From a virus (taxonomy: Duplodnaviria; Caudoviricetes), in IMG/VR virus record IMGVR_UViG_3300005098_000067, positions 1 to 63,596 of that record: DNA of 63,596 bases; one strand, given 5' to 3'. The position numbers and the translations under genes are program-made. Each line of letters opens with the position of its first letter. The first letter of the stretch is position 1. The notes under the pieces were generated by a model that saw only the letters and a program-made list of their open reading frames with translations, did not search any database and was not told the origin of the DNA. Positions 14,012-14,131 of the stretch are shown here, piece after piece.

Positions 14012-14131
14012 TGGGCCAGGCAGGCTTTGAACCTGCATCTGCTCCTGGAAAGCAGAGCCGGGCCTGGTTCCAGGTCATCCCGGCACCGCAGCGATCACAT
14101 CGCTGCTGCTCACCCTCTTGGCTACTGGCCC
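14012..14131 (-). ncRNA. 120-nt tRNA-like RNA with three internal arms and no anticodon loop
   Basis: Acceptor GGGCCAG/CTGGCCC and T-arm GCAGG TTCAAAG CCTGC. Internal hairpins GCAGCGAT/ATCGCTGC, GCCGGG..CCCGGC and TCTGCT/AGCAGA. Confidence 0.75.

Follow-up and report, generated by a model that had tools for sequence, protein, structure and literature searches.

Mitochondrial tRNA punctuation and mascRNA are transfer RNA (tRNA)-like processing elements, and the part of such molecules recognised by RNase P, by RNase Z or exonucleases and by the CCA-adding enzyme is the top half, formed by the acceptor stem and the T arm. In phage T4, the tRNA cluster yields, besides tRNAs, stable RNAs of about 120-140 nucleotides (nt) and of unknown function (species 1 and 2, rnaC/rnaD), which are matured together with the tRNAs. 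Examples from organelles include the t-elements of plant mitochondria, which have been described as tRNA-like processing elements (PMC1920247). Here we analyse a 120-nt five-armed tRNA-like element, E3, in the IMG/VR virus record IMGVR_UViG_3300005098_000067; the window below is the whole 63.6-kb stretch of this record (63,596 nt). We tentatively favour the reading that E3 is a genuine chimeric tRNA-derived RNA that does not decode, is cut out by tRNA enzymes and serves transcript punctuation. By analogy, it would work most like the organellar tRNA-like processing elements, with which it shares a non-decoding tRNA shape placed between coding regions where RNase P and RNase Z would cut. However, tRNA punctuation, t-elements and mascRNA are organellar or nuclear and have been demonstrated experimentally, whereas E3 belongs to a phage, its cuts are predicted and it carries three elaborate hairpins. 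The resemblance to the T4 species is one of kind only, and homology is not claimed. In the literature searched, we found no paper on phage tRNAs with D-loop inserts or on tRNA-like punctuation in phages.

E3 and its parts, all encoded on the minus strand, are listed below with their window coordinates; in this numbering RNA position p equals 14132-p.

14012-14131, minus strand: E3, 120-nt five-armed tRNA-like element (Rfam RF00005, minimum free energy fold, minihelix scan)
14125-14131, minus strand: 5' strand of the acceptor stem, GGGCCAG, nt 1-7, pairing with 14013-14019 (nt 113-119), 7/7 Watson-Crick
14111-14124, minus strand: U8 A9 and D-like stretch GCCAAGAGGGUG, nt 8-21 (cmscan alignment, sequence)
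14085-14109, minus strand: hairpin A, nt 23-47, 8+2 base pairs (bp); pair probabilities 0.77-1.0 for the 8-bp stem
14057-14084, minus strand: hairpin B, nt 48-75, 6+4 bp; GCCGGG/CCCGGC, AUGA bulge, CCUG-GAAC-CAGG; outer pairs with probability 0.99
14038-14056, minus strand: hairpin C, nt 76-94; stem CUGCU/AGCAG with 7-nt loop UUCCAGG (CCA), aligned by cmscan as an anticodon arm and seen in the pair probabilities
14020-14036, minus strand: T arm GCAGG-UUCAAAG-CCUGC, 5 bp, nt 96-112 (fold, cmscan, minihelix scan)
14009-14011, minus strand: 3-nt spacer CUU between E3 and tRNA-Thr; CCA is not encoded (sequence)

The top half of the element is intact. All seven pairs of the acceptor stem (GGGCCAG/CUGGCCC) are Watson-Crick, the discriminator is A (at 14012), and the T arm combines a 7-nt loop with G53-C61, U54, U55, C56 and A58. 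The D-like stretch reads A14 G15 A16 G17 G18 G19, in which A14, G15, G18 and G19 fall at their canonical numbers. An earlier sequence-only reading had described a tRNA mimic with a 7-bp acceptor stem, U8-A9, a D-like loop containing GG and a 5-bp T arm, with two extra hairpins beyond the anticodon position and a 3-nt gap to tRNA-Thr downstream, and each of these features was found on the minus strand, the extra hairpins being hairpins B and C and the gap being the CUU spacer. Its description of the anticodon position as an 8-bp hairpin with a 3-nt loop holds for the thermodynamic fold, in which hairpin A closes on a GUG triloop; in tRNA numbering the same hairpin has a 5-6 bp stem and a 7-nt loop, A32 U33 G34 U35 G36 A37 U38, with GUG at 34-36. 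Hairpin C forms six Watson-Crick and two G-U pairs in the fold.

The minimum free energy of E3 is -65.1 kcal/mol, compared with -48.8 +/- 4.0 kcal/mol for shuffled sequences (z -4.07); none of 200 shuffles was as stable, and no other member of the window's set of tRNA-like elements reached this z-score. The Rfam tRNA model aligned to E3 over its complete length (positions 1-71) with 34.7 bits against a cut-off of 29 and with a 53-nt insertion (E-value 1.4e-4 when 5.5 kb were searched, 3.7e-7 for the record). E3 therefore reaches the RF00005 gathering score over the full model and has the 7-bp acceptor stem, the 5-bp T stem and the 7-nt T loop of that family, in line with its earlier identification as a tRNA mimic. 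Compared with canonical tRNA, the acceptor stem, U8, A14, G18 G19, T arm and discriminator are alike, whereas the length of 120 nt, the three hairpins in place of one anticodon arm, an outcompeted D stem and a 2-nt variable loop set E3 apart. Simple decay of a pseudogene, which had been argued against on the grounds of intact stems, is indeed unlikely because every helix of E3 is perfect.

Whether E3 could decode depends on which of its two candidate anticodon arms is considered. When opened, hairpin A presents AUGUGAU, with GUG exactly at 34-36, and hairpin C presents UUCCAGG, with CCA; in the minimum free energy fold both loops are closed to 3 nt. As a working tRNA, E3 would be a tRNA-Trp(CCA) whose D-loop insert is expanded or excised, or a tRNA-His(GUG) whose variable region is giant and holds two hairpins. 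This is in our view highly improbable, but several observations fit it. The Rfam alignment covers a complete tRNA in which the 7-nt loop is UUCCAGG, and GUG is flanked by U33 and A37. ARAGORN did not call E3 in default mode and, with introns allowed (-i), placed the anticodon gtg at position 34. Over 1334 in-silico deletions of E3, the calls returned by ARAGORN included 401 of tRNA-His(gtg) and 64 of tRNA-Trp(cca); deletions d20_71 to d25_72 gave tRNA-Trp, and deletions of about nt 42-90 gave tRNA-His.

Both readings have structural defects. In the register of the covariance model, which underlies the Trp reading, nt 72-75 serve as the 3' strand of the D stem, hairpin C is the anticodon arm, and hairpin A together with most of hairpin B makes up a D-loop insertion of about 53 nt. 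The only candidate partner of nt 10-12 is the CGGC in the 3' strand of hairpin B, and the resulting D stem (10-12 with 73-75) has a pair probability of 0.008, versus 0.99 for the competing base of hairpin B. The D loop would then span about 59 nt, instead of the 7-11 nt closed by a D stem of 3-4 bp, and the variable loop would have 2 nt where at least 4 nt are expected. Folding E3 as a cloverleaf gives -47.6 kcal/mol versus -65.1 for the minimum free energy fold, a cost of 17.5 kcal/mol; a fold with the D stem forced lies within 2.7 kcal/mol. For His, the D stem is limited to two Watson-Crick pairs at most, and the variable region would comprise about 51 nt with two hairpins. In addition, A73 is presumably at odds with bacterial Trp identity, and the lack of G-1 presumably with His identity in most bacteria. 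As modelled, neither reading yields a sound tRNA. The earlier statement that E3 cannot decode is thus plausible given the five-arm junction, the D stem probability and the 2-nt variable loop, but it is unproven because hairpins A and C can each offer a U33-containing 7-nt loop (GUG or CCA).

A related possibility is that the insert is an intron whose removal restores a normal tRNA, which the sequence-only reading had named as an outcome that would overturn it. Formally, deletion does give a callable tRNA; splicing signals and machinery were not found. A parallel is offered by archaeal tRNAs with non-canonical D-loop introns, which are removed at bulge-helix-bulge motifs; as in E3, a gene that is otherwise tRNA-like has its D loop enlarged by about 50 nt. 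A degenerate end-to-end pattern of E3, GGGCCRGUAG...GGUUCAAA.CC...GGCCCA, retrieved at least 120 insert-bearing tRNAs from metagenome contigs, many of them with D-loop inserts, and the ends of E3 resemble those of the tRNAs fetched in this way. From their sequences and bulge-helix-bulge motifs, we read these as probable archaeal intron-containing tRNAs. Among the matches listed, tRNAs with D-loop inserts that tools do not call are common in sediment metagenomes, which is consistent with a working tRNA. However, no bulge-helix-bulge was found at the junctions of the E3 insert; two strict motifs (H strands from nt 61/82 and 74/88) lie elsewhere in E3, and the same scanner found a strict motif in 38 of 40 control tRNAs (the first 40 of the insert-bearing metagenome tRNAs). 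Genes for the splicing endonuclease (PF01974) and RtcB (PF01139) were not found in the window, which is weak evidence given a record estimated to be about 58% complete. An archaeal-type intron was rejected on these two grounds. The signals in the window are of bacterial type instead, including a 12/12 sigma-70 site, strong Shine-Dalgarno sequences and auxiliary genes such as that for a YhhQ-like protein, and they also speak against a working tRNA of this kind.

Other classes were considered and set aside. In the tRNA-His with a 31-nt intron proposed by ARAGORN, the anticodon stem is mismatched and the D stem consists of 2 bp. Group I introns are about 200 nt or longer and interrupt the anticodon loop, whereas the insert of E3 has 53 nt and sits in the D loop; a search for Rfam intron families at E-values up to 10 gave no match in 12000-17500. 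Class II tRNAs have one variable-arm hairpin of about 10-24 nt and a sound D arm, and the His reading has neither. A tmRNA (transfer-messenger RNA) search with ARAGORN -m returned no genes. The YrlA/Y RNA-like family RF02553 shares with E3 a tRNA-like module accompanied by extra helices; its weak match (26.4 bits versus a cut-off of 69) spans the 3' end of E3 and half of tRNA-Thr, and no Ro gene (TROVE, PF05731) was found in the window.

The setting of E3 is what points to punctuation. We scanned the window for acceptor-T minihelices, defined as a 5-bp T stem with G53-C61 and a UUCRA loop, followed by a strand that pairs 7/7 with a stretch 68-150 nt upstream. The scan picked out six elements, confined to the minus strand of 12493-16596; 50 shuffled sequences yielded none. 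Only tRNA-Thr is standard. The other five (E1, E3, E4, E5 and E6) are non-canonical; they keep the minihelix while the decoding half is rebuilt in different ways. Together with a hammerhead ribozyme, these six elements punctuate a block of small open reading frames (ORFs) at 12.5-17 kb, in whose intergenic gaps they lie. These elements and the associated signals are as follows.

13937-14008, minus strand: tRNA-Thr(UGU), the only standard tRNA of the window (ARAGORN; Rfam 70.7 bits)
12493-12567, minus strand: E1, tRNA-like element of 75 nt; 8-nt loop CCGCCUCC, variable loop short (Rfam 40.4 bits; ARAGORN tRNA-???; fold)
15192-15284, minus strand: E4, 93-nt tRNA-like element whose acceptor stem and T arm are canonical and whose interior is not (tRNA-Sec matches weakly, 20 bits; minihelix scan)
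15981-16072, minus strand: E5, 92-nt tRNA-like element, paralogue of E6 (minihelix scan)
16506-16596, minus strand: E6, 91-nt tRNA-like element, paralogue of E5 (ARAGORN tRNA-???)
16920-16990, minus strand: type II hammerhead ribozyme with an ORF on either side (46.5 bits with Rfam RF02276, cut-off 37)
13899-13936, minus strand: 5' untranslated region (5'UTR) after tRNA-Thr with GGUUAGUCAAGCAAAGGAGGC, a variant form of AUUAGUUAGCAAAGGAGGC, the motif found after the hammerhead, E4 and E6
19444-19472, minus strand: sigma-70-type promoter-like site TTGACA-17-TATAAT, 12/12 consensus (consensus scan)
19071-19099, minus strand: second sigma-70-type site, 11/12 consensus (consensus scan)

The following distances refer to mechanically called ORFs. 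Minihelix elements and the hammerhead start 2-47 nt past a stop codon and end 27-60 nt ahead of the next start codon (36 nt for E6, 37 for E4, 38 for tRNA-Thr and 41 for E5); the hammerhead begins 2 nt past a stop codon and finishes 27 nt ahead of a start codon. The sequence AUUAGUUAGC..AAAGGAGGC follows the hammerhead, E4 and E6, and with the close variant after tRNA-Thr it accompanies four of the seven RNA elements. E3 itself, with its minihelix intact, occupies the gap between the ORF at 14179-14463 and that at 13404-13898, and no promoter-like or terminator-like site is nearby; in 12000-19800 no terminator-like site was found except the T arm of E4, and the two sigma-70 consensus sites are situated upstream. 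Of the three roles suggested earlier for E3 (processing signal, decoy for tRNA-targeting defence enzymes, protein scaffold), only the first gains indirect support, from its position in a polycistronic block whose intergenic gaps hold tRNA-like elements and a hammerhead.

E3 is most economically read as an E1-like scaffold whose D loop has gained about 52-53 nt, which could have come about by fusion or duplication within a phage tRNA cluster. In the mechanism that we propose, it would be transcribed within a long polycistronic transcript of small ORFs. Host RNase P would cleave twice, at G1 (14131) and where tRNA-Thr begins, the CUU spacer would be trimmed by RNase Z or 3' exonucleases, and CCA would be added. 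The mRNA would thereby be split between the two flanking ORFs, and a stable RNA of about 120 nt would be freed. Self-cleavage of the hammerhead would do the equivalent punctuation job in its own gap. If excision by RNase P and RNase Z occurs, this would be a bacteriophage using punctuation by tRNAs in the style of mitochondria, and the released RNAs, above all E3 with its two anticodon-like arms, would be candidate new decoys or regulators.

Derivation from an E1-like scaffold is suggested by modest evidence. The ends GGGCCRGUAG...GGCCCA are common to E1 and E3, both have a short variable loop, and E1 aligns onto the two ends of E3 with a single 46-nt gap in the D region. Read in this manner, E3 appears to carry one tRNA top half and two tandem D-plus-anticodon modules.

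Several points weigh against punctuation. Three perfect hairpins exceed what a cleavage signal needs, for which the minihelix would suffice, so that the bottom half is left unexplained. Because tRNA genes among small ORFs are ordinary in phages, the pattern may reflect insertion sites only. The promoter-like sites are as many as in shuffled sequence (2 versus a mean of 2.0). In the phage with the nearest terminase (55% identity, 100-kb record), neither tRNAs nor a hammerhead were found, and the 5'UTR motif is missing as well; the arrangement of RNA elements is therefore not conserved in the relatives that could be reached. No homologue of E3 was found in viral contigs, in 265 loci or among the metagenome matches listed. 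Finally, a composite element of similar length in another phage, L270:4432-4554, has no excess stability (z -0.07), so composite fusions can be plain by-products.

The last two points lead to a serious rival of punctuation, namely that E3 is a neutral fusion relic: a young chimera of two tandem tRNA genes, or the outcome of an internal duplication, whose tidy look would be due to its youth alone, and which is processed since its minihelix has survived but has no selected function. We regard this as possible but on the whole doubtful. It is a serious rival because composite tRNA-like elements seem to recur in phage tRNA clusters, and the layout of E3 accommodates it well: nt 1-47 can pass for a tRNA from its 5' end as far as the variable loop, with GUG in the anticodon position, nt 48-120 for one that begins with the D stem and is complete at its 3' side, and deletions restore either reading. 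The absence of E3 homologues from the collections named above also speaks for a relic.

Evidence for recurrence came from 163 viral loci (1.63 Mb), which contained 52 minihelix elements, eight of them longer than 95 nt (seven distinct). The over-long elements had z-scores of -1.2 to -2.5, and an Rfam tRNA match was found for one only. This element, L270:4432-4554 on the plus strand (the same as in L271), is a 123-nt composite in an unrelated phage contig of 40% GC with 34 tRNA matches. Another T arm and another D arm are nested within its outer acceptor stem and T arm, the Rfam tRNA model aligns with 42.9 bits and a 58-nt insert, and it starts 11 nt after a tRNA-Thr(UGU). It is similar to E3 in length, in the T stem GCAGG/CCUG, in having tRNA-Thr(UGU) as neighbour and in the proximity of an ORF of the phrog_1933 family, which lies within about 1 kb of the L270 element and about 0.8 kb from E3. 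However, its inner modules are T and D arms and it lies downstream of tRNA-Thr, whereas those of E3 are anticodon arms and E3 lies upstream; beyond the T arm, the two sequences show no clear homology.

Further over-long elements of 109-132 nt are L016:7018-7131, L018:5353-5469, L018:7608-7719, L017:6467-6575, L054:1979-2093 and L119:1574-1705. They have a canonical T arm and a 7-bp acceptor stem, come from unrelated viral contigs and in some cases adjoin ordinary tRNAs; none reaches the Rfam gathering score. The ends GCUGAUG...CAUCAGCA are common to the L016 element and L018:5353. In addition, a metagenomic array of at least 24 tRNA genes, L222, holds two insert-bearing tRNAs on the plus strand: L222:9263-9388 (126 nt), in which 65 nt replace the anticodon loop and whose acceptor stem is the same as that of E3, and L222:6133-6277 (145 nt), which resembles tRNA-Leu(UAG) and whose variable region has about 72 nt. 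Composite tRNA-like elements thus seem to arise repeatedly in phage tRNA clusters.

Other observations speak against a relic. A fusion would draw its two acceptor strands from separate genes, yet these strands match at 7/7 positions. Hairpin B, with ten perfect bp, is unlike any canonical tRNA arm, and some remodelling after fusion would therefore be needed. Unlike the L270 element and the other over-long elements, E3 is far more stable than shuffles of its own sequence. Moreover, the block retains four further tRNA-like elements of the non-decoding kind, among which E5 and E6 show pair-preserving change. Between E5 and E6, 7 of 29 predicted pairs differ, pairing is kept in all seven, and in one pair both sides have changed; since pairing survives changes on both sides, at least this pair is under structural selection, which also favours the main reading. 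Should E3 be a relic, it would still show that tRNA clusters produce chimeras overlooked by annotation tools, as default tRNA finders drop departures from the cloverleaf and ARAGORN in default mode missed E3.

Phage tRNA genes are increasingly re-read as weapons against tRNA-cleaving host defences, and phage tRNAs have been reported to counter such defences (PMC10264068, PMC11555353, PMC11464382, PMC12445682). E3 could accordingly be a decoy or sponge, in which a processed tRNA chassis presents two imitations of anticodon arms (GUG and CCA), for a tRNA-targeting defence nuclease or a tRNA-binding factor. Two anticodon-like hairpins with U33-type loops on an intact minihelix, and four neighbouring elements whose anticodon regions are also altered, agree with this idea, as do the cited reports. 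Nevertheless, we consider it unlikely. Both loops close to 3 nt in the minimum free energy fold, so the anticodon nucleotides are partly paired, and no anti-defence gene was recognised nearby, the flanking ORFs being orphans. Among the ORFs flanking E3, no Pfam or PHROG family was found except for the ORF at 14954-15154 (phrog_1933, unknown function).

A bolder version combines several of these ideas. E3 would be a selected bivalent tRNA mimic (His-like GUG plus Trp-like CCA), matured by tRNA enzymes and acting as a decoy for defence nucleases or as a two-faced adaptor; it would be part of a wider, undescribed phage practice in which non-decoding tRNA-like RNAs and ribozymes interchangeably punctuate early transcripts. 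The over-long minihelix elements, which occur in five other viral contigs among the viral loci scanned, can be cited for such a practice. We think that this version has little chance of being right. The cluster surrounding E3 is arguably more interesting than E3 alone.

The insert, being GC-rich and composed of two hairpins, also resembles a small palindromic mobile element, of the kind of a repetitive extragenic palindromic (REP) sequence or a miniature inverted-repeat transposable element (MITE), inserted as a double hairpin in the D loop of a tRNA-like gene. This origin is very hard to credit. No part of the insert recurs in the window (12 nt match at best, E 0.34), the 24-nt core of hairpin B has no match in other viral contigs, and no flanking direct repeats were seen.

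Homologues of E3 were sought in several ways. An exact 18-mer from its 5' end and the degenerate end-to-end pattern both gave no match in viral contigs, and blastn and nhmmer searches against the 265 loci (2.14 Mb) returned similarity in the T arm and acceptor stem only. Among the metagenome matches listed, none had an E3-like D region; L222 and L252 have the E3 acceptor stem and a 9-mer in common with it, which may be due to chance (about 0.3 such matches expected by a rough estimate). Relatives of two ORFs neighbouring E3 were not found in viral contigs. These searches therefore yielded no covariation for the helices of E3 itself. Pieces of the phage were present in one DNA run, which originates from marine sediment, and no RNA run was listed as containing the stretch. 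Contigs from the DNA run agree with the window at every position, and E3 is covered by none of the pieces listed, leaving no variants for covariation. A 14-mer common to E5 and E6 was also followed up, and the 120 matches listed were all attributable to chance: a T-loop-like word was present in 1 of 120, and this was not a tRNA.

Additional observations concern the neighbours of E3. The anticodon loop of E1, CCGCCUCC, includes GCCUCC, the complement of GGAGGC in the conserved 5'UTR/Shine-Dalgarno motif of its neighbours, and because of this complementarity E1 may mimic an anti-Shine-Dalgarno on a tRNA chassis. Between E1 and the next start codon, at 12440-12492 on the minus strand, GACGAAAGGAUGAAC is present in about 2.5 tandem copies, the last of which enters the Shine-Dalgarno sequence. 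E5 and E6 have a 6-nt loop AGCYGA at the anticodon position, a long variable-arm hairpin with the loop GAAUAA and a D loop without GG. The 390-nt intergenic stretch at 18434-18823 (minus strand) reaches -164 kcal/mol when folded, with no Rfam family matching it at gathering score, and a 246-nt AT-rich gap at 17828-18073 is conspicuous in a genome of 60% GC.

The record as a whole (about 60% G+C) encodes terminase, portal and siphovirus-type tail genes, and all called ORFs of the window lie on the minus strand. The host looks bacterial, because nearly every ORF is preceded by an AGGAGG-type Shine-Dalgarno sequence, sigma-70 consensus sites are present and the nearest clusters of the YhhQ-like transporter are bacterial. 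In genome contigs, the terminase gave only weak matches to Limosilactobacillus prophages, and these are uninformative on the host. Near the terminase gene, on the minus strand, are candidate genes for a queuine tRNA-ribosyltransferase-like protein of the DpdA type (53051-54877), a radical SAM/SPASM protein (57530-58408) and a YhhQ-type queuosine-precursor transporter (60067-60732), with several glycosyltransferases alongside; judged by its gene content, this set looks like a 7-deazaguanine DNA-modification module.

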